Source: Candidatus Campbellbacteria bacterium (GTDB taxonomy: Bacteria > Patescibacteriota > Minisyncoccia > Phycocordibacterales > GCA-2747955). From it: a stretch of DNA of 64,000 nt. Shown here in pieces: positions 27,771 to 63,440 of the stretch. Within the stretch, counting starts at the first letter, position 1. Each line of letters opens with the position of its first letter. Location: positions 5,983 to 69,982 of the forward strand of contig PDQZ01000008.1 of NCBI GenBank assembly GCA_002747955.1, in the 5' to 3' direction. A program made the translations under genes and the position numbers. The notes under the pieces were generated by a model, which searched no databases, was not told the origin of the DNA, and saw nothing but the letters and a program-made list of their open reading frames with translations.

Positions 27771-27860
27771 TGAAAGCCCGAAATTTAAGAAGGTTTTTTG
27801 GAAAAAGGTAGAAGCGAAGCTTCTACCTTTTTCCAAAAAACCTTCTTAAATTTCGGGTTT
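27771..27860. repeat. long perfect palindrome, family B (copy B3), abutting tRNA-Arg 3' end
   Basis: GAAAGCCCGAAATTTAAGAAGGTTTTTTGGAAAAAGGTAGAAGC-GAAGC-mirror. Confidence 0.65.
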
Positions 27861-27865
27861 TCTTG

Positions 27866-27937
27866 TCCTCCAACCAGGAATCGAACCTGAATCTAGCCCT
27901 TAGGAGGGGCTTGTTCTATCCATTGAACTATTAGAGG
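27866..27937 (-). tRNA. tRNA-Arg (anticodon CCT)
   Basis: manual fold: 7-bp acceptor, D-stem GTTC/GAAC, anticodon stem AGCCC/GGGCT loop CTCCTAA, T-arm CAGGTTCGATTCCTG; CCA not encoded. Confidence 0.8.
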
Positions 27938-33163: not shown

Positions 33164-34033
33164 ATGAATAATGAAGAAAAAGTAAAACTTCAAAAAGAAA
33201 TTGAAAAACTAGAACAGTTAACTTATAGCCTCAATTTTTGGAAAGACCCTCAAAAAGCTCAAGAGATTTTAGAAGAAATCAAAAAGCTAAATATTTTAAA
33301 AGAAGGTGGGGAAGAAAATGACTTAAAATCTTGTGTTATAAGTATTTTTGCTGGAACCGGTGGAGATGATGCAGAAGATTTTGTAAGAATTTTGTTTCAG
33401 ATGTATTTTAAATTTTGTGAAAAAAACAATTTTGAAATTCAGATTTTATCTCAAAGCCCAAATGAACAAAAAGGTTATAAAAATATTTCTTTTGAAATTT
33501 TAAATAAAGGAAGTTACGGTCTTTTTAAAAATGAAAACGGTGTTCACAGGCTTGTGAGAAAGTCGCCTTTTAACGCAAAGTCAAAAAGGCAAACTTCATT
33601 TGCTAAAGTTGAGGTTTTGCCAAATATTGAACAAAAAGATTTTCAGATCAACGAAAGTGATTTTGAAATTTCATTTGCTAAATCACAAGGTTCGGGTGGG
33701 CAAAACGTAAACAAAAGAGAAACGGCAGTTCGGATTGTTGACAAAAAAAGTGGAATTTCAGTTTTTGTTTCAGAAGGTAGAACTCAAGAGTATAACAAAA
33801 AAAGAGCTTTTGATTTGATTCGTGCTAAACTTTATTTAAAACACAAAGAAGACCAAGAAAAAATCAAACAAGGTTTAAAGGTCAATGACAAAGTTGAAAT
33901 TTCGTGGGGAAGTCAAATGAGAAATTATATTTTTGATCCATATAAAATGATCAAGGACACAAAGCAAAATATTGAAATTACAAATATTCAAAAAGTTTTA
34001 AATGGAGATTTGTCTGATTTTATTAAGTTGTAA
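33164..34033 (+). CDS. prfB: peptide chain release factor 2 (short N-terminus, no programmed frameshift site)
   Basis: SPF tripeptide (RKSPFNAKS) and GGQ motif (GSGGQNVNK). Confidence 0.85.
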   Translation: MNNEEKVKLQKEIEKLEQLTYSLNFWKDPQKAQEILEEIKKLNILKEGGEENDLKSCVISIFAGTGGDDAEDFVRILFQMYFKFCEKNNFEIQILSQSPNEQKGYKNISFEILNKGSYGLFKNENGVHRLVRKSPFNAKSKRQTSFAKVEVLPNIEQKDFQINESDFEISFAKSQGSGGQNVNKRETAVRIVDKKSGISVFVSEGRTQEYNKKRAFDLIRAKLYLKHKEDQEKIKQGLKVNDKVEISWGSQMRNYIFDPYKMIKDTKQNIEITNIQKVLNGDLSDFIKL

Positions 34034-34034
34034 A

Positions 34035-34121
34035 AAAAGCACGAATTTTTGGAAATTTCGGTTGCAAAAAGCATCAACTTAATTGATGCTTTTTGCAACC
34101 GAAATTTCCAAAAATTCGTGC
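34035..34121. repeat. long perfect palindrome (about 85 nt), B-like architecture (copy B7)
   Basis: AAAGCACGAATTTTTGGAAATTTCGGTTGCAAAAAGCATCAA-CTTA-mirror. Confidence 0.6.
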
Positions 34122-34164
34122 CTGTATTTATTTAAATAAATATTTTTTATGTTATAATTACTCC

Positions 34165-40149: not shown

Positions 40150-40247
40150 AAAACAAGCCCGAAATTTTGAAGCAAATTTTTGGAAAAAAGAACAAGCAAC
40201 GCTTGTTCTTTTTTCCAAAAATTTGCTTCAAAATTTCGGGCTTGTTT
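40150..40247. repeat. long perfect palindrome family B (copy B4)
   Basis: near-identical to 53379-53473 with compensatory arm changes. Confidence 0.7.
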
Positions 40248-40257
40248 TCAACCAACC

Positions 40258-40767: not shown

Positions 40768-40856
40768 GGAGAAGTGGCTGAGTGGTCGAAAGCGCGTCCC
40801 TGCTAAGGACGTGTCCGGGTTAAACTGGACCGGAGGTTCGAATCCTCTCTTCTCCG
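40768..40856 (+). tRNA. tRNA-Ser (anticodon GCT), type II with long variable arm, discriminator G
   Basis: GGAGAAG acceptor, anticodon stem CGTCC/GGACG loop CTGCTAA, T-arm AGGTTCGAATCCT. Confidence 0.8.
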
Positions 40857-41125
40857 CCGAGCACAAAAACCCAAAGCGACAGCTTTGGGTTTTTCCGTGC
40901 TCCGGCCGGAGAAGAGAGGATTCGAAAAGAGCGCAGCCCTGTTTTTTCTCTGCGTGGCTGCGTCCGAGAAAAAACGGCAAGCGGCGGGCCCGCGAGTTCT
41001 TAACGAACGACGAACGCAGTGAGGAAGTAAAACCCAAAGCGACAGCTTTGGGTTTTTCCGTGCTCCGGCCGGAGAAGAGAGGATTCGAAAAAAGCGGACT
41101 TTTCAAAAGTCCGCTTTGGTTTTAA
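40857..41125. repeat. tRNA-Ser 3'-end-derived inverted and direct repeats (two about 75-bp copies) plus segment shared with 57960-58030
   Basis: GGAGAAGAGAGGATTCGAA (revcomp of tRNA T-arm/acceptor) at 40895 and 41059; AAAACCCAAAGCGACAGCTTTGGGTTTTT hairpin twice. Confidence 0.6.
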
Positions 41126-41128
41126 AAA

Positions 41129-41668
41129 TTATTCAGCAAGTTTCTCTCCCGCTTTCTGCAGAAGTTCACTTGCTTTTTTTAAACCCTTTTCACCAAGGTT
41201 TTTAGAAGCTTCAAGCCCCTTTTTTCCTAGGTCTTTTGCAACACCAACTCCTTTTGATGTTGCTTCTTTAGTTTTTTCAACTGCCTTTTTACTAGTTTCT
41301 TTTAGGTCGCACCAAGCAGGTGCGTTAAAAGTAACTTCATTTACTTTATCTTTAACAGTGATAAAGTAAATGATTTTTTTACTGAAACCGGCTTTCTTCC
41401 AGGTTCCAGAGAAGGCGTATTTTCCAGGTTCAATTTGTTCTTGAACTTGGAAAACATTCTCGTCTTTTCCCATCGTAAATTCGTATGGGAAATTGGGAAC
41501 ATTTTTTTTCAATTCCTTGAAATAAAATGAACCGTTTTCAAAACCCTCAATAACCATTTTACAGCCGTAAGGCTTGTAAAAGGTCACGATGGTTTTGTTG
41601 TCATCTTCAGCAAATAAAACATTGCTAAAGAAAACTAAAATTAAAAAAACAATTTTTTTCATTACCAA
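41129..41668 (-). CDS. secreted hypothetical protein with K/A/E-rich C-terminal tail
   Basis: signal peptide MVMKKIVFLILVFFSNVLFA. Confidence 0.45.
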   Translation of the reverse strand: MVMKKIVFLILVFFSNVLFAEDDNKTIVTFYKPYGCKMVIEGFENGSFYFKELKKNVPNFPYEFTMGKDENVFQVQEQIEPGKYAFSGTWKKAGFSKKIIYFITVKDKVNEVTFNAPAWCDLKETSKKAVEKTKEATSKGVGVAKDLGKKGLEASKNLGEKGLKKASELLQKAGEKLAE

Positions 41669-47118: not shown

Positions 47119-47140
47119 TTTAAAGTGGTTTTTGAGAAAT

Positions 47141-47233
47141 GAAAGCCCGAAATTTTGGCAGAATTTTTTGAAAAAGTTGAAAGGCTTTGCCTTTCAACTT
47201 TTTCAAAAAATTCTGCCAAAATTTCGGGCTTTC
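47141..47233. repeat. long perfect palindrome family B (copy B5)
   Basis: GAAAGCCCGAAATTTTGGCAGAATTTTTTGAAAAAGTTGAAAGG-CTTTG-mirror. Confidence 0.7.
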
Positions 47234-47268
47234 TATTTTTTAAACAAAATTATGTTATAATTTTAAGT

Positions 47269-53366: not shown

Positions 53367-53378
53367 TGGTTGGTGAAA

Positions 53379-53473
53379 ACAAAGCCCGAAATTTTGGAGT
53401 AAATTTTTAGAAAAAAGAACAAGCGACGCTTGTTCTTTTTTCTAAAAATTTACTCCAAAATTTCGGGCTTTGT
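53379..53473. repeat. long perfect palindrome family B (copy B6)
   Basis: near-identical to B4 with paired compensatory substitutions. Confidence 0.7.
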
Positions 53474-53527
53474 TTCTGTCTATTTTCACCACTCATTTTG
53501 CCACCAAAAGTATTCCACAACTTATCA

Positions 53528-53679: not shown

Positions 53680-55170
53680 AATTATAAGAGTTTGATCCTA
53701 GCTCAGGATGAATGCTGGCTGTGTGGATAAGGCATGCAAGTCGAATGCATTTAGTTGCATGGCGGACGAGGTAGTAACACGTAGGACTACGTACCCCAAA
53801 GTCAGGGATAACCCATCGAAAGGTGGGATAATACTTGATATCTCTTCGGAGGAAAGATTTATCGCTTTGGGAACGGCCTGCGGAGTATCAGCTAGTTGGT
53901 AAGGTAATGGCTTACCAAGGCTACGACGCTTAGGGGAGGTGAGAGCCTGACCCCCACCGATGGGACTGAGACACGGCCCATACTCCTACGGGAGGCCGCA
54001 GTCGAGAATCTTCCACAATGGACGAAAGTCTGATGGAGCGACACAGCGTGATGGATGAAGTTCATAAGAATGTAAACATCTTTTATATGTGAAAAAGTTT
54101 ATTGATATTAACATATGAATAAGGGGTTGCTAACTACGTGCCAGCAGCAGCGGTAATACGTAGGCCCCGAGCATTATCCGGAATCATTGGGCGTAAAGGG
54201 TCCGTAGGCGGTTTAATTAGTCTTTCGTTAAAGCACCAGGCTCAACCTGGGACAGGCGAAGGAAACGGTTAAACTAGAATCAAAAAGAGGTGTGTGGAAC
54301 TCATAGTGTAGGGGTGAAATCCGTTGATATTATGGGGAACACCAAAAGCGAAGGCAACACACTGGTTTTGTATTGACGCTGAGGGACGAAACCCTGGGTA
54401 GCGAATGGGATTAGATACCCCAGTAGTCCAGGGCCTAAACGATGCATACTAGCTTTTTAAATTTCAATCATTTAAGAGGCGAAGCTAACGCGTTAAGTAT
54501 GCCGCCTGGGGAGTACGGTCGCAAGGCTAAAACTCAAAGGAATAGACGGGGACTCGCACAAGTAGTGGATCATGTGGCTTAATTCGTAGGTACACGAAGA
54601 ACCTTACCCAGATTAGATATTATATTCATGCTACACATTGGAGACAAATAGTAGATATTGTGGTATAACAGGTGTTGCATGGCCGTCGTCAGTTCGTGGC
54701 TTGAGCTGTTCCTTTAAGTAGGGAAACGAACGCAACCCTCATCGTTTGTTATAAGTGTCAAACGAGACTGCCTCGCCTTAAGTTTTTAAATAAAATTTTG
54801 AAGATTTAAGGCGGGGAGGAAGGTGGGGATGACGCCAGGTCAGCATGACCCTTGATGTCTGGGGCTGCACACGTGATACAATGGGCAGGACAACAAGACG
54901 CAATACGGCAACGTGGAGCAAATCTTTCAAACCTGTCCTAAGTTCGGATCGGGGGCTGAAACTCGACCCCGTGAAGTTGGAATTACTAGTAATCGCAGGT
55001 CAGCTATACTGCGGTGAATATGTTCTCGAGTCTTGTACTCACCGCCCGTCAAGTCAAGGGAGTTGGGAGTACCCAAAGTTCGTGTTTATCACGACCTAAG
55101 GTAAGCTCAGTAACAGGGACTAAGTCGTAACAAGGCACGGCTAGCGGAAGCTGGTCGTGGATTATTTCAA
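53680..55170 (+). rRNA. rrs: 16S ribosomal RNA, complete, not followed by tRNA or 23S within 500 nt
   Basis: AGAGTTTGATCCTAGCTCAG 5' end; GTGCCAGCAGCAGCGGTAATAC; GGATTAGATACCC; ...AAGTCGTAACAAGG...GGATTATTTC 3' end lacking CCTCC. Confidence 0.95.
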
Positions 55171-55344
55171 AGAAGATGGTCATAAATGACTTTATTGGTT
55201 GAAACAATTCTATAATTGTTAGACTTTCATCTGGAGTCTTTAAATCAGATGCGCTTATAGTAAGATATGCGACACTTCTAATTAGTCGGGGCACAAGAAA
55301 GATTTTTTTCTATAACCAATCACTAAATTACAATATTTTATTTC

Positions 55345-56417: not shown

Positions 56418-56454
56418 AAAGATAAAAAACACCGAAAGGTGTTTTTTATTAAAA

Positions 56455-57025
56455 GTGAAAAACCACCAGCTTTAGCTGGTGTGTGCGTTTAAAAACGTAG
56501 TTAGTATAATTTCCGCAAGGAAAGTGTTTTAACAATTAATATAATCTAAAATGAATCAAAGACTATATCACTTAAATCATAGCACATGGATTTGTGATTA
56601 CCACATTGTTTGGTGTCCAAAATACAGAGGAAATGTGTTGGAAGACAAGTATATTAAAAATCAATTAAAAACAATGTTTAAAAATATTGTAAAGTGGAAA
56701 GGTTTAATTATTCACGCTTGGCACATTGGTGATAATCATATACATTTATACATATCAATCCCGCCAAAATATTCAACTGCATACACAATACAAATTTTGA
56801 AAGGAAAAACTTCAGCATGGATAAAAAAGAAAACAAAAAAATTTCCAAGGGGAACTTTATGGCAAAGAGGATATTTTGTATCAACAATTGGTTTAAACAA
56901 ACACCAAATTAAAAACTACATTAACGATCAATCTCACCACCAAATAGAACTGACTCAGAAAAAGTTATTCTAGCCCACAACGTGGGCAAGATAAAAGCGA
57001 CCAGCGTTTAGCTGGTCGTTTTTAC
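56455..57025 (+). mobile_element. IS200-type insertion sequence (tnpA only) with subterminal hairpins
   Basis: left hairpin CACCAGCTTTAGCTGGTG (56457-56480), right hairpin GACCAGCGTTTAGCTGGTC (57000-57021) flanking tnpA. Confidence 0.7.
56551..56973 (+). CDS. tnpA: IS200/IS605-family Y1 (HUH) transposase TnpA
   Basis: HUH motif HIGDNHIHLYISIPPKYS and catalytic Tyr region LWQRGYFVSTIG; 140 aa. Confidence 0.85.
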   Translation: MNQRLYHLNHSTWICDYHIVWCPKYRGNVLEDKYIKNQLKTMFKNIVKWKGLIIHAWHIGDNHIHLYISIPPKYSTAYTIQILKGKTSAWIKKKTKKFPRGTLWQRGYFVSTIGLNKHQIKNYINDQSHHQIELTQKKLF

Positions 57026-57067: not shown

Positions 57068-57790
57068 ATGAAAAAAGAAATAATAAAAAAAGATATAACA
57101 TTTAAAATGAAAGATAAAGGTGAGATTTATGCTGATTTTTATTCTTCAAAAAGTAAAAAATGTATTGTTATAATACACGGACTTTTTGGAAATTCATCTG
57201 AACACCAGTTTTATAATTCAGCAAGGTTTTTTGCCAAAAAAGGTTACGATGTTTACGCTTTAAACATGTATACAATGGGAAAAAGGCAGATTGATAAAAA
57301 TAGTATAACTCAACAAGTAAAAGATTTAGAGGAAATTTATGAAAAAGTAAAAAGAAAATATCAGAAAATATTTTTAATAGGTCATTCAATCGGTGGACCA
57401 ATTATCTATTTATCAAAAGTGGCCCAACAAGAAAACAAAGTTCAAGCTTGTGCTTTGTGGGAACCAACCATAAATCCAGTTGGAGTTGAAAAAGATTTTA
57501 AGTTTAAAAAAGGAATAAACGCTTACTATACTTTTGGTTTTTTAGTTTCTAAAAAAATGGTTTCTGATTTGAAAAAATTAACTTCAGAAAAGATTTCAAA
57601 AATCAAAAAACCTTTTTTGTTGGTTTTAAATACAAAAGGCGGGCTTTATAAAAATTGGAAAAAAGCTTATGAGTTTATTAGAACTGATTATGAAACTTTG
57701 TATTTAAAAAACTCAGGACATAATTTTTCTAAAAATAATCAAGATCAGATTTTGTATAAAGAGACTTTGAAATATTTTAATAAATTTTAA
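57068..57790 (+). CDS. alpha/beta-hydrolase fold protein
   Basis: nucleophile elbow GHSIGG, HGLFGN oxyanion region. Confidence 0.6.
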   Translation: MKKEIIKKDITFKMKDKGEIYADFYSSKSKKCIVIIHGLFGNSSEHQFYNSARFFAKKGYDVYALNMYTMGKRQIDKNSITQQVKDLEEIYEKVKRKYQKIFLIGHSIGGPIIYLSKVAQQENKVQACALWEPTINPVGVEKDFKFKKGINAYYTFGFLVSKKMVSDLKKLTSEKISKIKKPFLLVLNTKGGLYKNWKKAYEFIRTDYETLYLKNSGHNFSKNNQDQILYKETLKYFNKF

Positions 57791-57794
57791 GTTT

Positions 57795-58045
57795 TTGTAA
57801 TGGGTCTTGTTTTGAAAGAGGGCTCGGCACCAGTTCTAAACTCAGACTTCGCATTCGCTCGTCTTCGTTAAGAACTCGTTGCCTCGATTTAAAGCATTTC
57901 CGAGCACTTTTTGTGGTTGTGTTTTAAAAGTGCTTGGTCGAGCCTGGAAAGAAAGAGGGCTCGGCACCAGTTCTAAGCTCACTTCCTCACTGCGTTCGTC
58001 GTTTGCTAAGAACTCGTCGCCTCGTTTTTTCGAGCCCTCTTTTTT
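57795..58045. repeat. two direct repeats resembling tRNA-Leu 3' end (AAAGAGGGCTCGGCACCAGTTCTAA...) plus segment shared with 40985-41030
   Basis: 57829-57880 vs 57955-58020; GAGGGCTCG matches tRNA-Leu T-arm region. Confidence 0.55.
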
Positions 58046-58180
58046 GTAAAAAATAATACAAAATAATTCCTGCGCACTGCTCGGAATGTATTTTGTTTAT
58101 TTTTACACAAAAAACACCTGAACTTGATTGTACTGTTACAAAACAAAAACTTAACTTCGGTTAAAAAGTTAAGTTGCTTG

Positions 58181-58262
58181 TACCCGAAAGAGGGCTCGAA
58201 CCTCCATGGATTGCTCCACTGGTTCCTAAGACCAGCGCGTCTACCAATTCCGCCATTCGGGC
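58181..58262 (-). tRNA. tRNA-Leu (anticodon TAG), type II
   Basis: acceptor GCCCGAA/TTCGGGT, D-loop AATTGGTAGA, anticodon stem CTGGT/ACCAG loop CTTAGGA, long variable arm, T-arm GAGGTTCGAGCCCTC. Confidence 0.8.
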
Positions 58263-58337: not shown

Positions 58338-59279
58338 ATGGCATCGTTAAAAACATTGAAAGGAAAAATGGCTGGGATCAAAAAAACAGCCAAAGTAACA
58401 AAAGCAATGGAATCAATTTCTGCAATCAAAATGCGATCAGCACAAAAAAAAGCAATCGCATCAAGAGAATATTCTTTCCGAGTTTTTTCAATTGTAAAAA
58501 GAGTTTCAAAACTTTTTTTGCATGATAATGTAGATTTATTTTTCAAACAAAAATTAGACAACTTACACCCAACTGTAATTTTACTGATATCTCCTGACAA
58601 AGGTTTAACAGGGGGAATGAACAATTTTCTATTTAAAAAAGTAGACGAAGTTATCAAAGACCAAGAATTTACAAAAGAGAATTTATCTTTTGTTTGTGTA
58701 GGTAAAAAAGGTTACGAGTATGTTTCTAAAAAAGGTTTTGAAGTGATCAAATATTTTGATTTGATTGCCGAAAAATCAACAACAGAAGAAATCAAAGAAG
58801 TTTCAGAATACATGCAGTCTTTATATGCTGAAAACAAGTGTGCCCGAATAAAAGTAATTTATACAACTTTTATCAACACCTCTGAACAAACTCCAAAAGT
58901 AAGAAGAATTTTACCCATCAACTACAAAGATACAAAAAAGTTTATCAAAGAAATTTTACCAGACAAAGGAAAGTTTTCAGATATTGAACACAACATCGAT
59001 ATTGATCACTCAGATGTTGGATCATACTTGTTTGAACCGGACATTAAAGATGCGGTGAAAACTTTAACTGAGTATGTAATGCACATCGGAGTATACCACT
59101 CAATTTTAGAAGCTTTTGCTTCAGAACATTCAGCCAGAATGTTGGCAATGAAAAACTCAACAGATAAGGCCGATGAGCTTTCAGAAAATATCAGAAAGAA
59201 AGTAAACAAAGAAAGACAAGCTCAAATTACAAAAGAAATTTCAGAAATTGTTTCTGGAATTGAGTCAATGAAAAAATAA
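58338..59279 (+). CDS. atpG: F-ATPase gamma subunit
   Basis: MASLKTLKGKMAGIKKTAKVTKAMESISAIKMRSAQ N-terminus and helical C-terminus typical of gamma. Confidence 0.8.
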   Translation: MASLKTLKGKMAGIKKTAKVTKAMESISAIKMRSAQKKAIASREYSFRVFSIVKRVSKLFLHDNVDLFFKQKLDNLHPTVILLISPDKGLTGGMNNFLFKKVDEVIKDQEFTKENLSFVCVGKKGYEYVSKKGFEVIKYFDLIAEKSTTEEIKEVSEYMQSLYAENKCARIKVIYTTFINTSEQTPKVRRILPINYKDTKKFIKEILPDKGKFSDIEHNIDIDHSDVGSYLFEPDIKDAVKTLTEYVMHIGVYHSILEAFASEHSARMLAMKNSTDKADELSENIRKKVNKERQAQITKEISEIVSGIESMKK

Positions 59280-59337
59280 AACAAGCAGGAGGCTTGTTTT
59301 GTTTTTTTGGCTTTTATTTTTTTTGTTTTTTGCTTTG

Positions 59338-59367
59338 CCGCGCAGGTTTCGCCTGCGCGGATTTTTT
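59338..59367 (+). terminator. GC hairpin CCGCGCAGG-TTTCG-CCTGCGCGG + T-run
   Basis: seen in sequence. Confidence 0.55.
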
Positions 59368-59390
59368 ATTTTAATTTTAGGTTTGAGTTT

Positions 59391-59436
59391 GCACGATTTT
59401 GACTGTTTGGTGGTTGTGTTTGTCAAAATCGTGCTT
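59391..59436. repeat. hairpin family C copy with loop in reverse orientation (TGTTTGGTGGTTGTGTTTG)
   Basis: stem GCACGATTTTGAC/GTCAAAATCGTGC. Confidence 0.55.
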
Positions 59437-59560
59437 TTCTGATTTCTGAACAAAAATTTAGATATTTTTCCAAAATTTTTTAAAAAATCTTTTATGTGGA
59501 TATGTTGTCGACTATTGATGTGATTTTGTCTTTTTTTCCTTATTTTTCATAAAATTCATG

Positions 59561-59588
59561 TTGACTTTTTCTGTGAATTTGTTAAAAT
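59561..59588 (+). promoter_or_regulatory. promoter TTGACT-16-TAAAAT upstream of ribosomal protein cluster
   Basis: seen in sequence; second TATAAA 2 nt before rpsS ATG. Confidence 0.45.
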
Positions 59589-59608
59589 ATTCACACTTTT
59601 TATAAATT

Positions 59609-59935
59609 ATGACAAGATCAATTAAAAAAGGGCCATACGTGGACGAAAATTTAATGAAAAAAATAGCTGGAAAAAAACCAGAAGACACAGGTACAATTAA
59701 AACTTGGGCTCGTGCTTCTCAAATTCACCCAGACATGATTGGATTTACTTTTGGAGTACACAATGGTAGAAAACACATAGATGTTTTTGTAACAGAAGAA
59801 ATGGTAGGACACAGACTAGGAGAATTTGCAGCAACAAAAACTTTCCATAGACATGGAGGTAAAATGCAAAAAGAACTAGATCAAAAGAAAAGAGAAGCAG
59901 AAATCTCAGCAGCAAAAGCTGCAAAGGCTGCTTAA
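59609..59935 (+). CDS. rpsS: 30S ribosomal protein S19 (with A/K-rich C-terminal extension)
   Basis: [14 protein letters not shown]...[27 protein letters not shown]. Confidence 0.9.
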
Positions 59936-59953
59936 TAAATAAATATTATTATT

Positions 59954-60295
59954 ATGAAAGTTAAAGCAAGTATTAAAAATTTAAGATCTACACCAAGAAA
60001 AGCAAGATTGATTGCTGATTTTATTCGTGGTAAAGACTTAAAAATAGCAAAAGCAGAACTTAAATTTGTGAACAAAAAAGCAGCAGCTGACTTTTTAGAT
60101 TTATTAAAATCAGCAGAAAGCAACGCAAAAAACAATTTTGATTTAAAAGCAGATAACTTATTTGTTGAATCAATTTCAGTTGACGCAGGAGCTGCTTTAA
60201 AAAGACACAGAGCTGGTTCAAATGGTAGAGCTTTACCATTTAAAAGAAGATTATCAAATATAAATCTTGTTTTATCAGAAAAAGAAACTAAATAA
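59954..60295 (+). CDS. rplV: 50S ribosomal protein L22
   Basis: KASIKNLRSTPRKARLIADFIRGK. Confidence 0.9.
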   Translation: MKVKASIKNLRSTPRKARLIADFIRGKDLKIAKAELKFVNKKAAADFLDLLKSAESNAKNNFDLKADNLFVESISVDAGAALKRHRAGSNGRALPFKRRLSNINLVLSEKETK

Positions 60296-60308
60296 TCAAT
60301 TATAAATT

Positions 60309-60971
60309 ATGACACATATAGTACATCCGTATGCACACAGATTGGGAGGACTTAGAGATTGGAAATCTCAATGGACTTTCTCAAATAAAGAAGACTACAA
60401 AAGGTTTTTAAAAACTGACCAAATCGTTAGAGCTTTTTTAGAAAAAGAATTAGGAAATTCTTTTGTTTCTTCAATCCAATTCCAAAGACACTCAGACGAC
60501 AGATATGTTGTAAAAATTTACACATCAAGAGTTGGGATGATTGTTGGAAAAGATGGAAAAGGAGTTGAAAAACTTACACAAAAAGTTAAAAAACAACTAA
60601 AGAAAAACAATCTAGTTGTACCAACAAACTTAAAAATTGATTTAGAAGAAGTTTCTTCTCCTGATTCTGATGCTGGAATTGTTGCAGCAACAGTTAAAGA
60701 AGGTTTAGAAAGAAAAATGCCTTTCAGGAGAGTTCTAAAAACAGCGATTGAAAAATCAATGGCAGACAGAAACGTAAAAGGAATTAAAATTTCTGTTTCA
60801 GGAAGACTTGGGGGAGCAGATATGGCTAGAAAAGAATACCTTAAAAAAGGAAGAATTCCACTTTCAACATTCAGAGCAGATGTTGATTACAGAGAAGCAA
60901 GAGCAAATCTTCCATATGGTGTTATTGGTGTGAAAGTGTGGATTTACAGAGGTGAAATTTTTGATAAATAA
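60309..60971 (+). CDS. rpsC: 30S ribosomal protein S3
   Basis: KH domain GMIVGKDGKGVEKL; C-terminal GRLGGADMARKEYLKKGRIPLSTFRADVDY. Confidence 0.9.
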   Translation: MTHIVHPYAHRLGGLRDWKSQWTFSNKEDYKRFLKTDQIVRAFLEKELGNSFVSSIQFQRHSDDRYVVKIYTSRVGMIVGKDGKGVEKLTQKVKKQLKKNNLVVPTNLKIDLEEVSSPDSDAGIVAATVKEGLERKMPFRRVLKTAIEKSMADRNVKGIKISVSGRLGGADMARKEYLKKGRIPLSTFRADVDYREARANLPYGVIGVKVWIYRGEIFDK

Positions 60972-61010
60972 TTCAACTTTTGTTTAAAATTATAAATTAT
61001 AAAAAATATT

Positions 61011-61436
61011 ATGTTATTTCCAAATAAAGTAAAACATAGAAAATGGCAAACTGGTAGAAAAAACTCAGTTAAGCTTGCAGAAAAAGTAGCAACAAAAGGA
61101 ACAAAAGTTTCATTTGGAGATTTTGGTTTAAAAGCAATGTCTCAAGCAAGAGTTACTTCAAACCAAATCGAAGCAGCCAGAAAAGCAATTAAAAGACATG
61201 TAGGAAAACTTGGAACAGTTTACATCAGAGTTTTTCCAGACAGGCCTGTAACACAAAAAGCAGCAGAAGTTGGTATGGGTAAAGGTAAAGGTGATCCACA
61301 ACACTTTTGTGTGGAAGTTTTCACAGGAAGAGTTTTGTTTGAAGTTACAGGGGTGAAAGAAGAAGTAGCTCGTGAAGCTTTGAGAAAAGGTGGAACAAAA
61401 TTACCAGTTAAAACAAAAGTTATTGAAAGAAAATAA
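61011..61436 (+). CDS. rplP: 50S ribosomal protein L16
   Basis: MLFPNKVKHRKWQTGRK ... RMGKGKGDP-like GMGKGKGDPQHF. Confidence 0.9.
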   Translation: MLFPNKVKHRKWQTGRKNSVKLAEKVATKGTKVSFGDFGLKAMSQARVTSNQIEAARKAIKRHVGKLGTVYIRVFPDRPVTQKAAEVGMGKGKGDPQHFCVEVFTGRVLFEVTGVKEEVAREALRKGGTKLPVKTKVIERK

Positions 61437-61445
61437 TATTTTATT

Positions 61446-61622
61446 ATGAAAGATTTAATCAAAAAAAGTACAAAAGACTTAACAAAAGAGCTTAAAGCTT
61501 TAAAAGAAAAAAACAGAGAAATTTCTTTTTCAGCAGGAGGAGCTGTTTCAAAAGACTCTTTTGAAAAAAGAAAAAACAGAAAACAAATTGCAAAAATTTT
61601 AACTGTGTTAAATAAAAAATAA
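61446..61622 (+). CDS. rpmC: 50S ribosomal protein L29 (58 aa, below ORF-track cutoff)
   Basis: manual translation [26 protein letters not shown]...; position between rplP and rpsQ. Confidence 0.75.
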
Positions 61623-61626
61623 AATT

Positions 61627-61866
61627 ATGACAACAGATAAAAATATTAAAACATTTACAGGAGTTGTTTCTTCAGACAAAATGAAAGATACTACTGTTGT
61701 GAATGTAGAATCTTACACAAAACACCCAAAATACGGAAAATTTGTTAAAAAAACAAAAAAATTCAAAGTTCACGATGCTGGAAACACAGCAAAAGTGGGT
61801 GACAAAGTAGAAATCACAGAGACAAAACCAATCTCTAAAACTAAAAGATTTATTTTAGTAAAATAA
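61627..61866 (+). CDS. rpsQ: 30S ribosomal protein S17
   Basis: [41 protein letters not shown]. Confidence 0.9.
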
Positions 61867-61896
61867 TTTGGTTATTAAATTTATTAACAAAACAAT

Positions 61897-62268
61897 ATGA
61901 TACAACCACAAACAATAGTAAAAGTAACAGACAACTCAGGGGCTTTGCAAGCAAGAGTATTTAAAGTTTTAGGAGGTTCAAAAAAAAGATATGCAAGAAT
62001 TGGAGATATTGTTGTTGCTTCAGTGCAATCAGCACAACCAAGAAAAACTGTAAAGAAAAAAGATGTTGTTTACGGGGTTGTTGTAAGGCAAAAACAACCT
62101 TTCAGAAGAAAAGATGGTTCTTATATTTATTTTGATGAAAACTCAATCGTTTTGATCTCAAAAGAAAAAAAAGAACCTATCGCAGGTAGAATTTTCGGAC
62201 CAATTCCAAGAGAAGTTCAAGAACTTGGTTATCAAAAAATTGCTTCTTTAGCACCAGAAGTACTTTAA
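61897..62268 (+). CDS. rplN: 50S ribosomal protein L14
   Basis: MIQPQTIVKVTDNSGA... Confidence 0.9.
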   Translation: MIQPQTIVKVTDNSGALQARVFKVLGGSKKRYARIGDIVVASVQSAQPRKTVKKKDVVYGVVVRQKQPFRRKDGSYIYFDENSIVLISKEKKEPIAGRIFGPIPREVQELGYQKIASLAPEVL

Positions 62269-62312
62269 TTTATCTACTTAAAATTATTATTAAAAAACCT
62301 ATAAAAAATATT

Positions 62313-62621
62313 ATGAAGTTTAAAACAGGAGACAATGTAATTGTGATTGCCGGAAAAGACAAAGGCAAAGAATCTAAAATAGTAAAAATTTTCTCAAAAG
62401 AAAATAAGGTTGTTTTAGAAGGAGTGAATTTAAAAAAGAAACATATAAAAGCCTATGGACAACAAGAAGGTGGTATTTTAGAAATTCCATCTCCAATCGA
62501 TATTTCAAATATTGCTATTATTGATCCAAAAACTAAAAAAGCTTCAAGAGTAGGTTTTACATTTGACAAAAAAGGTAAAAAAATCAGAATTGCCAAAAAG
62601 TCAGGAAGTGAAATTAAATAA
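62313..62621 (+). CDS. rplX: 50S ribosomal protein L24
   Basis: KFKTGDNVIVIAGKDKGKESKIVKI (KOW motif). Confidence 0.85.
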   Translation: MKFKTGDNVIVIAGKDKGKESKIVKIFSKENKVVLEGVNLKKKHIKAYGQQEGGILEIPSPIDISNIAIIDPKTKKASRVGFTFDKKGKKIRIAKKSGSEIK

Positions 62622-62630
62622 TAAAATATT

Positions 62631-63185
62631 ATGAATAATCAAGGAGTAAAAGAAAAAATAAATACAGGATTTGAAATTTTGAAAGATAAAATTTCAATCA
62701 AAAACAAAATGCAAAGTCCAAAGTTGGAGAAAGTAACTATTTCTGTGGGGGTTGGAAAATTCAGAGATGACAAAAGAAAACTTGAGGTTGTACAAGACAG
62801 ACTTGAAAAAATCACAGGGCAAAAACCAGTTGTAGCTGCAGCTAAAAAATCAATCGCTACTTACAAAGTAAGAGAAGGTGATGTTTCAGGTTACAAAGTA
62901 ACTTTAAGAGGAGAACAAATGTATTCATTTGTTGACAAACTTATCAATATTTCTTTACCTAGAACAAAAGACTTTAGAGGAATTTCTAAAAAATCTGTTG
63001 ATCAAATGGGTAACTTAACAATTGGGGTTAAAGAACATATTGTTTTTGCTGAAACACCAGACGAAGAGATTAAAGATATTTTCGGACTATCTGTAACCTT
63101 AACTTCAACAGCAGAAAGCAAAGAAGATGCGATTACATTTTTTGAATACATTGGTATTCCTTTTAAAAAAGAAGAAACTAAATAA
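62631..63185 (+). CDS. rplE: 50S ribosomal protein L5
   Basis: KVTISVGVG...YKVTLRGEQMYSFVDKLINISLPRTKDFRG. Confidence 0.9.
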   Translation: MNNQGVKEKINTGFEILKDKISIKNKMQSPKLEKVTISVGVGKFRDDKRKLEVVQDRLEKITGQKPVVAAAKKSIATYKVREGDVSGYKVTLRGEQMYSFVDKLINISLPRTKDFRGISKKSVDQMGNLTIGVKEHIVFAETPDEEIKDIFGLSVTLTSTAESKEDAITFFEYIGIPFKKEETK

Positions 63186-63191
63186 AATATT

Positions 63192-63440
63192 ATGAAAAAA
63201 GATATACACCCAGAAAATAGAGAAATTGTTTTTGTTGATAAAGAAGCAAACTATGTTTTAAAAGCATTGTCTACTTTAAAAACAGAAGATACTTACGAAT
63301 TTGAAGGAAAAGAATATCCAGCAGTTTTTGTTGAAATTTCTTCAGCATCACACCCTTTCTATACAGGAAATACAAAAACTCTTGATACTGCAGGGAGAGT
63401 TGATAAGTTTAAGAAACGATTCGAAAAGGCAAAGAGCTAA
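63192..63440 (+). CDS. rpmE: 50S ribosomal protein L31 (non-zinc type) at the position normally held by S14
   Basis: [14 protein letters not shown]...[24 protein letters not shown]. Confidence 0.8.

Follow-up and report, generated by a model that had tools for sequence, protein, structure and literature searches.

Why would a tRNA gene be followed by repeated copies, both direct and inverted, of its own 3' end? The question is raised by a stretch of 64,000 nucleotides (nt) of contig PDQZ01000008.1 from a Candidatus Campbellbacteria bacterium (this whole stretch is called the window below), in which short structured repeat modules lie behind the genes for tRNA-Leu(TAG) and tRNA-Ser(GCT). The window proteins ATP synthase gamma and RpiB are 100% identical to public records carrying that species name, and the module regions reach a guanine-plus-cytosine (GC) content of 48-53%, against 30% for the window. 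A first-pass annotation, made by a model from the letters, had seen direct repeats behind tRNA-Leu and suggested either decayed attachment (att) site arrays of a tRNA-targeting mobile element or a tRNA-associated repeat family. The latter suggestion is supported: related modules occur at Ser, Leu, Lys and Asp tRNAs in five other assemblies of Campbellbacteria-like relatives, and together they make up a tRNA-anchored repeat family, whose mode of origin and role we infer. What that annotation did not mention are the inverted copies of the tRNA 3' end, found at 58029-58042 (extending to 58051) for Leu and at 40907-40926 and 41070-41089 for Ser.

Modules behind tRNA-Leu and tRNA-Ser

We call T the part of the tRNA from the T-loop to the discriminator base, and Tbar its inverted copy. 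Read in the sense of the tRNA, a complete unit consists of T, a trailer with the terminator hairpin, Tbar (an inverted Watson-Crick copy of tRNA nt 73 back to 54), a GC-rich hairpin insert of 60-190 nt, and, from about C56 onward, a direct copy of T, in many cases followed by the trailer and terminator again. Tbar is predicted to pair in two ways: backwards, over the terminator, with the actual tRNA 3' end, which makes a long palindrome that is near-perfect, or forwards with the downstream copy of T, giving a helix that closes the insert. The Leu locus contains the following elements, in tRNA sense:

58300-58273, minus strand: promoter-like site of tRNA-Leu, just upstream of the gene (promoter scan)
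58180-58262, minus strand: tRNA-Leu(TAG), whose strand from T-loop to acceptor 3' end is the copied sequence (ARAGORN; Rfam, 53.9 bits)
58148-58175, minus strand: hairpin AACTTAACTT/AAGTTAAGTT and then a T-run, the likely tRNA-Leu terminator (inverted-repeat search)
58040-58114, no strand assigned: AT-rich imperfect hairpin between terminator and Tbar, with 37-nt arms that are 73% complementary (inverted-repeat search)
58029-58051, minus strand: Tbar, inverted copy of the tRNA-Leu 3' end, exact over 14 nt (58029-58042)
57964-58028, minus strand: insert of module M1, a long hairpin with arms at 58005-58020 and 57964-57978 (fold z = -4.4)
57951-57963, minus strand: direct copy of tRNA-Leu nt 56-68 (CGAGCCCTCTTTC), which pairs with Tbar and closes M1 (repeat search, fold)
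57900-57937, no strand assigned: spacer hairpin CCGAGCAC...GTGCTTGG separating M1 and M2 (inverted-repeat search)
57827-57890, minus strand: insert of module M2, homologue of M1 (fold z = -2.5)
57814-57826, minus strand: second direct copy of tRNA-Leu nt 56-68 (repeat search)

The two Leu modules, of about 75 nt each, are thus arranged in tandem with a period of 137 nt, and each ends in a 13-nt copy of tRNA-Leu nt 56-68, which takes in the last T-loop bases, the 3' strand of the T-stem and the first three acceptor bases. The first-pass annotation placed direct repeats of about 60 bp at 57829-57880 and 57955-58020; they exist, but are longer and slightly shifted (57814-57890 and 57951-58028 on the plus strand, 84% identical over 80 nt and 97% over the initial 31 nt). 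The resemblance of their starts to the tRNA-Leu T-arm proved exact, as both begin on the plus strand with GAAAGAGGGCTCG, the reverse complement of nt 56-68. This 13-mer occurs three times in direct orientation (57814-57826, 57951-57963 and, within the tRNA, 58186-58198) and its inverted form, as a 14-mer, at 58029-58042. Over its full 23 nt the Leu Tbar is 83% complementary to 58178-58200, decay having turned GGG into TTT in the acceptor part. The fold of M1 is a long hairpin that the Tbar/T helix closes, with a purine-rich loop of 26 nt. Between M1 and M2 one stem pair changes from G-C to A-T on both sides and a second from G.T to A-T, and the M2 loop has diverged. The Leu region is matched at 100% by a Logan assembly of SRR6011893 (contig L003), whose reads are possibly shared with the assembly of the window. 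The M1 loop (57979-58004) also contains GCAAACGACGAA, which equals the beginning of the reading frame of the E. coli tmRNA tag; the likeness is probably due to chance, because no in-frame stop follows it.

The Ser locus is built from the same kinds of element:

40768-40858, plus strand: tRNA-Ser(GCT), with nt 54-73 at 40837-40856 (ARAGORN, Rfam)
40859-40906, plus strand: terminator hairpin H1 (GAGCAC-A5-CCCAAAGC GACA GCTTTGGG-T5-CC-GTGCTC) (repeat search, fold)
40907-40926, plus strand: Tbar1, a perfect 20-nt inverted copy of tRNA-Ser nt 54-73 (inverted-repeat search, fold)
40927-41028, plus strand: module X, roughly 100 nt, with a core (40931-41028) that is 100% identical in contig L007
41029-41089, plus strand: second copy of the terminator hairpin and Tbar, with Tbar2 at 41070-41089 (direct-repeat search)
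41091-41117, no strand assigned: palindromic terminator AAAGCGGACTTTT C AAAAGTCCGCTTT, shared with a convergent gene at 41129-41668 on the minus strand (inverted-repeat search, fold)

Here the tRNA's 3' end, the terminator and Tbar1 (40837-40926) form a single hairpin of 38 predicted bp (-68.9 kcal/mol, z = -13.2), and a direct repeat of 68 nt (41029-41096 versus 40866-40933, 99% identical) sets a period of 163 nt. The final 36 nt of X match M1, X stopping within what is the hairpin loop of M1. A module shared with the Ser locus had been placed at 40985-41030; the sharing is real, and its extent is corrected to 36 nt, 40993-41028 on the plus strand against 57981-58016 on the minus strand (94% identical, blastn E = 3e-10; 100 shuffles of the window gave no match). 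Read in tRNA sense, the segment runs in one and the same direction at the Leu and Ser loci. The Ser terminator moreover carries the CCGAGCAC stem motif of the Leu spacer hairpin. No further module copy was found in the 64 kb away from these two tRNA loci, nor did the promoter scan find a promoter-like site within the modules.

Units in relatives and the templating of their arms

Homologues of RpiB and of the ATP synthase gamma subunit led to the contigs of relatives. The following loci bear on the architecture:

L011, tRNA-Ser(GGA): two tandem units with a period of 177 nt; perfect palindrome arms of 41 bp
L017, tRNA-Lys: one unit
L017, tRNA-Asp: three units with three different inserts
L018, tRNA-Leu: one unit
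L021, tRNA-Leu: two units
L075, tRNA-Leu: T and Tbar around the terminator, without an insert
L010, L023 and L073, tRNA-Leu: undecorated
L078, tRNA-Ser(GCT), orthologous to that of the window: Tbar identical, X present

The module is therefore present at other tRNA loci and the locus differs across relatives, two points on which the first-pass annotation had staked its idea. In the window and in the relatives alike, all units lie directly downstream of the tRNA and are co-oriented with it, the insert has an identical orientation in every unit, and fresh units each carry the inverted copy of the tRNA 3' end at a fixed position. Tbar ends at the complement of T54 in eight of nine units. The direct copies are retained to different degrees: 19 nt and the trailer at Lys, 13 nt followed by decayed sequence at Leu, and variably decayed copies at Asp.

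The relationship between Tbar and T was followed across seven units at four tRNA types. We found that 94.3% of the positions pair, and that 14 of 20 pairs are changed on both sides; this covariation was reached in none of 500 shuffles, and sliding the register lowers pairing to 36-61%. Moreover, T65 (window) or T63 (L007), which pairs with a G in the real T-stem, is faced by an A in Tbar, and Tbar is therefore a complement of the tRNA 3' strand and not a copy of the 5' strands. By these alignments, the 3' strand of the local tRNA is the template of Tbar, which is not imported.

Among the inserts, one and the same family is found at different tRNAs: X with M1 (36 nt, 94%), the L011 Ser insert with that of L021 Leu (64 nt, 78%), and the L017 Lys insert with that of Asp unit A (63 nt, 79%). 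In each case the arms are new and match the respective tRNA, and the inserts have motifs in common, including AGCGAAGTATGTTTT and CGAGCGGCG. Minimum free energy folds are closed by the helix of inverted and direct tRNA copies in M1, L021, L011, Lys and Asp unit B, with fold z-scores of -4.4 for M1, -5.1 for L021 and -13.2 for the Ser palindrome. The terminal units of two independent arrays are truncated within the hairpin loop.

The history of one module can be traced in L078, which belongs to a relative whose RpiB is 79% identical to that of the window and which shares the rpiB-tRNA-Ser(GCT) locus and its promoter region. Its tRNA-Ser has a compensated change in the anticodon stem, and the stem of its terminator is different yet paired. 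Its X differs from that of the window by nine changes in 57 nt (16%), seven of them C to T, while pairing of the helix GCGCAGCC/GGCTGCGT is kept via G.U. Because this orthologous locus keeps the layout with a diverged X, comparison of the two contigs indicates that X is inherited at the Ser(GCT) locus and is not a recent insertion there. Searches of wider collections added one locus. The scan of metagenomes gave five chance matches and one true match, L007 (PDWI01007170.1), and the sole match of the genome-wide scan was a chance coding match in Colwellia. In L007 the 98-nt core of X, 100% identical to that of the window, stands on a different contig behind tRNA-Ser(TGA), with its own terminator and a Tbar that fits its own acceptor stem (CGGAAGTGAGAGGATTCGAA). 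The genes flanking it are unrelated to those of the window and none is common to the two in the sequence compared, so that this X may be either a recent second copy in one species or a transfer. Taken together, the alignments establish that units persist vertically, that inserts recur at different tRNAs with matching arms, and that the units form tandem, sometimes truncated, decaying arrays.

Several other sources for the inserts were considered and rejected. Peptide coding fails because a search with the translation of X matched only itself, and no reading frame is kept since M1 and M2 differ by a 1-nt indel in the loop. A tmRNA or tRNA-like fold lacks a T-arm partner, and ARAGORN found no tmRNA; a decayed inverted tRNA copy is contradicted by the sequence after Tbar, which is unlike the complement of tRNA nt 1-53; a 16S gene fragment shows no similarity; and the analogy with integron attC sites breaks down on the conserved G/TT junction base, which is not kept at the insert starts. 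Plasmid, phage or vector origin, or contamination, was dismissed for want of a blastn match in plasmid or phage collections. Six scans of viral contigs returned nothing, or chance matches within unrelated genes, and Rfam scans at gathering and permissive thresholds, covering the window loci and five related loci, returned tRNAs and noise only.

Surroundings of the loci

The window contains three tRNA genes according to ARAGORN, Arg(CCT) at 27865-27937 (minus), Ser(GCT) at 40768-40858 (plus) and Leu(TAG) at 58180-58262 (minus), and an Rfam scan places a 16S rRNA gene at 53680-55172. Upstream of the repeats behind tRNA-Leu lie an open reading frame (ORF) for a membrane protein, an IS200-type Y1 transposase (56551-56973) and an alpha/beta hydrolase (57068-57790), the last two as first annotated; the ATP synthase gamma gene comes after tRNA-Leu. 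Pfam scans of 41 ORFs of the window, among them every ORF adjoining either locus, showed the IS200 TnpA as the only transposase and no recombinase; 22 further ORFs of at least 90 aa lay outside these scans. The IS200-type element (56440-57010) has the Y1 transposase as its only gene, flanked by the hairpins CACCAGCTTTAGCTGGTG and CGACCAGCGTTTAGCTGGTCG. The 3' end of the 16S rRNA (55140-55172) reads ...GGAAGCTGGTCGTGGATTATTTCAAAG, the CCUCC anti-Shine-Dalgarno sequence not being at the expected place, and there is no 23S gene in the 9 kb downstream. The gene atpG is on its own, and directly after it come rpsS-rplV-rpsC-rplP and further genes (58338-63440), the part of the ribosomal operon from S10 to L2 being missing here.

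The window also holds a separate family of REPIN-like palindromes, with five copies (27772-27862, 34032-34128, 40150-40248, 47130-47244 and 53377-53475). They are near-perfect, of about 100 bp, with arms of 44-56 nt and complementarity of up to 100%; their outer arms are conserved (AAAGCCCGAAATTTTGG), and their inner cores are copy-specific and terminator-like. All of them lie at gene ends, one directly behind tRNA-Arg.

In the relatives, tRNA-Leu(TAG) beside atpG points towards atpG in L010, L023 and L018, and away from it in the window, L073 and L075; apparently a small segment with just this tRNA gene either can invert or was re-inserted. Partial tRNA duplications with small inserts also occur on the 5' side of tRNA genes: at L023 2090-2260, where a 40-nt repeat at tRNA-Gln includes nt 1-24; at L017 9110-9300, where tRNA-Asp shows two copies of nt 1-17 with the insert at the D-loop; and at L075 5914-6010, where the duplication at tRNA-Leu is 12 nt long. 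In L017 (8720-8985) tRNA-Met is followed by tandem units that copy the stretch from the anticodon loop to the 3' end, together with an inverted copy of the anticodon loop, and behind tRNA-Trp in L023 (2290-2400) lies a decayed duplicate of the 3' two-thirds of that tRNA. In L073 (1-2940) a tRNA-His/Gln/Trp cluster adjoins genes for a DNA methylase and a serine recombinase (Resolvase and Recombinase domains) as well as an unknown gene; L010 has other genes at the position of this methylase and recombinase block. Finally, many genes (T2SSE, YceG, RelA/SpoT, Fapy glycosylase and DUF8128) are split in L017 and L023 when compared with L018, L019 and L010, which makes them either pseudogenes or products of indel-rich assemblies.

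Origin of the units and their relation to RtT

The closest architectural counterpart is the RtT repeat of E. coli, which lies distal to tyrT and tyrV, encodes the rtT (RttR) RNA and is known only behind tRNA-Tyr in enterobacteria. As checked on the genome, E. coli K-12 has three and a fraction 178-bp units behind tyrV, in each of which a direct copy (21 nt) of the tRNA-Tyr 3' end is preceded in tRNA sense, at a distance of about 80 nt, by a 22-nt inverted T-arm copy at 86%; the consensus structure of the Rfam family RtT (RF00391) is closed by the helix of the inverted and direct copies. Both systems lie directly downstream of a tRNA gene, are co-oriented with it and come in tandem units; both follow the cyclic order of direct tRNA 3'-end copy, trailer, inverted T-arm copy, GC-rich insert and next direct copy; in both, the inverted/direct helix closes the unit and GCGA(A/C/G)G motifs are abundant. 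The tandem period includes the tRNA 3'-end copy and measures 178 nt in E. coli as against 137 (Leu), 163 (Ser) and 177 (L011). No similarity in sequence is detectable between the two systems. They differ further in that the E. coli direct copy includes CCA and starts at about nt 58, its inverted copy spanning the whole T-arm at 86%, whereas CCA is not encoded in the tRNA genes studied here, whose copies extend no further than the discriminator. Here, moreover, the inverted copy corresponds exactly to nt 54-73, abuts the palindromic terminator and builds, together with the actual tRNA end, a hairpin of 38 predicted bp with arms of about 41-44 nt, and several tRNA species and several insert families are involved. 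In E. coli, rtT RNA is reportedly released from the tyrT transcript (bioRxiv 10.1101/2024.07.17.603846; Rfam RF00391), takes part in the processing of that transcript and likely modulates the stringent response, its mode of action being unresolved (bioRxiv 10.1101/2024.07.17.603846).

We favour, with moderate confidence, the view that the modules are RtT-like repeats of the tRNA trailer, created at the level of DNA by template switching or fold-back copying combined with recombination, and then read through from the tRNA and processed. Units would arise and spread in DNA when a hairpin promotes template switching or fold-back copying, and would spread further by homologous recombination through the tRNA-derived arms, with no recombinase of their own. 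Template-switch mutation at quasi-palindromes is an established mechanism in E. coli, and it would give exact inverted copies flanking a hairpin as well as Watson-Crick correction of G.T positions, in keeping with the perfect palindromes built from tRNA 3' end, terminator and Tbar. Long perfect palindromes are tolerated and produced by this genome, as the separate family of about 100 bp illustrates. As for expression, since each complete unit ends in the context of a tRNA-like T, trailer and terminator, transcription from the tRNA promoter probably reads through into the modules, and the tRNA 3'-end machinery probably trims the product, by analogy with E. coli rtT.

A number of points weigh against this account. 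Both terminator read-through and processing of the units are assumptions. Fold-back copying alone leaves the stop at T54, the fixed orientation of the insert and its arrival at new tRNAs unexplained; the template-switch events we know of are single mutations of a few bases, and we know of no description of recurrent 20-nt extensions with a fixed end and a conserved insert. The fixed stop, the fixed insert orientation and the truncation within loops in two arrays leave room for a site-specific enzyme acting in trans, and a trans-acting recombinase may be encoded elsewhere in the genome. X folded alone is not unusually stable (z = +0.7). The related sequence examined amounts to about 330 kb in total (window plus the relatives' contigs), and the genome-wide and metagenome-wide scans yielded one true extra copy. 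The RF00391 model, which scores 133-138 bits on E. coli as a positive control, matched neither the window loci at E<=10 nor L007, L011, L017, L018 and L021 at E<=0.5; the link to RtT is therefore architectural only, and by this comparison the modules are an architectural analogue or a very distant relative of RtT and not members of its family.

Might the modules instead be genes for small RNAs of the RtT type under selection, whose Tbar/T helix mimics the minihelix of acceptor and T-stem, and whose processed, stable product with purine-rich loops has a cellular role, for instance in tRNA metabolism or the starvation response? We consider this rather unlikely. In its favour, the modules are GC-rich in a genome of 30% GC and co-oriented with the tRNA in all units; compensatory stem changes separate M1 from M2, L011 from L021 and Lys from Asp unit C; the GCGCAGCC/GGCTGCGT changes between the window and L078 keep pairing, through G.U, on the tRNA-sense strand alone; the orthologous locus has kept the module; and the release of rtT from its transcript offers a precedent. 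Selection for a product sits poorly, however, with the frequency of truncated and decayed copies, the different inserts inside one array, the tRNA-Leu orthologues that have no module, the largely C-to-T divergence of X from a close relative and its unremarkable stability, and with the position of the modules downstream of an apparently good terminator.

The att-site explanation, which the first-pass annotation had raised, would have islands or phages integrate repeatedly into the T-loop through an integrase, each event duplicating the tRNA 3' end, after which almost all of the inserted DNA was deleted and att-proximal remnants were left behind. Its factual core, the direct repeats of the tRNA 3' segment on either side of the insert, stands. 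In the Leu, Lys and Asp units these begin at C56, a fixed position of the T-loop; the Met and Trp duplications in relatives start at the anticodon loop, which is the second of the classical sublocations for integrases; inserts differ among the three Asp units, of which the most distal copy is the most decayed; some orthologous tRNA-Leu sites are empty; and a serine recombinase island adjoins a tRNA cluster in L073. Partial direct tRNA duplications in tandem and empty sites in some relatives are likewise features of CIME-type arrays. As an account of the whole, it nonetheless looks improbable. Neither the 41 scanned window ORFs, among them the neighbours of both loci, nor the called genes of related loci bearing units yielded an integrase, whether tyrosine or serine recombinase, and no gene lies between the repeats. 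The intervals between repeats carry no cargo and are uniformly tiny (60-190 nt), belonging to conserved structured families, and searches of phage, plasmid and viral collections gave no match. Every fresh unit has an inverted tRNA copy, which att duplication by an integrase does not make, the arms of one insert family change to fit each tRNA, and the Ser module is kept at the orthologous locus of a relative.

A Y1 transposase of the IS200 family lies 0.8 kb from the Leu array, and in a third explanation it would mobilise the modules in trans as non-autonomous hairpin transposons (of the REPIN, PATE or MITE kind), inserting them beside the TTCGA motif of T-loops in single-stranded DNA. Like REP, BIME and REPIN sequences with their RAYT enzymes and like IS200/IS605 elements, the modules are short non-coding intergenic hairpins in a genome with a Y1 transposase, one that multiplies long perfect palindromes (the family of about 100 bp with five copies in 64 kb); their insert orientation is fixed, there are two hairpins per unit at short distances from the ends, and the rightmost units are cut within a hairpin loop. 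All the same, we regard this as very unlikely. The left-end and right-end hairpins of the IS200 element share no significant similarity with the modules; in the window the modules keep to tRNA genes; their arms copy the neighbouring tRNA and not a fixed element sequence, whereas IS200/IS605 insertion yields no target-derived inverted repeats; and, unlike those of MITEs, the inverted arms vary by locus with the local tRNA and no short flanking duplication is present.

The least credible alternative is an RNA-mediated homing element in which Tbar serves as primer-binding site or guide for the tRNA 3' end or gene and a reverse transcriptase or RNA-guided enzyme acts from elsewhere: Tbar is indeed perfectly complementary to the tRNA 3' end over 20 nt up to the discriminator, one insert family is retargeted to different tRNAs, and the order of repeat, complementary site, body and repeat would resemble the retroviral R-PBS-body-R layout, but neither the scanned window ORFs nor the called genes of related loci include a reverse transcriptase, TnpB, IscB, IS110 or Cas gene, so that the linked enzyme of TnpB omegaRNA, bridge RNA, retron or group II intron systems is not seen there, no CCA complement precedes Tbar, and no Rfam guide-RNA family matches.

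In practice, short-read assemblies are interrupted at tRNA genes by the perfect palindromes and partial tRNA copies (L002, L003, L012, L077 and L078 are contigs that end there), and the modules can be mistaken for att sites of islands or for pseudo-tRNAs in metagenome-assembled genomes. RtT behind tyrT has for decades been an isolated enterobacterial curiosity, with no consensus on its origin and mechanism. Its architecture now appears independently in a distant, genome-reduced lineage, at several tRNA species and with locally matching arms, which points to a general process by which such units are built at tRNA 3' ends, and the loci described here provide comparative material for working that process out. 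A bolder idea, which we hold to be unlikely, is that the modules of the candidate phyla radiation (CPR) and E. coli RtT represent one unrecognised class of tRNA-gene-homing elements, in which each insertion copies both arms, one inverted and one direct, from the 3' strand of the tRNA that is targeted, perhaps via a tRNA-primed or hairpin-primed intermediate. If this were true, a small structured insert could hop between tRNA genes with neither a recombinase of its own nor a fixed target sequence.

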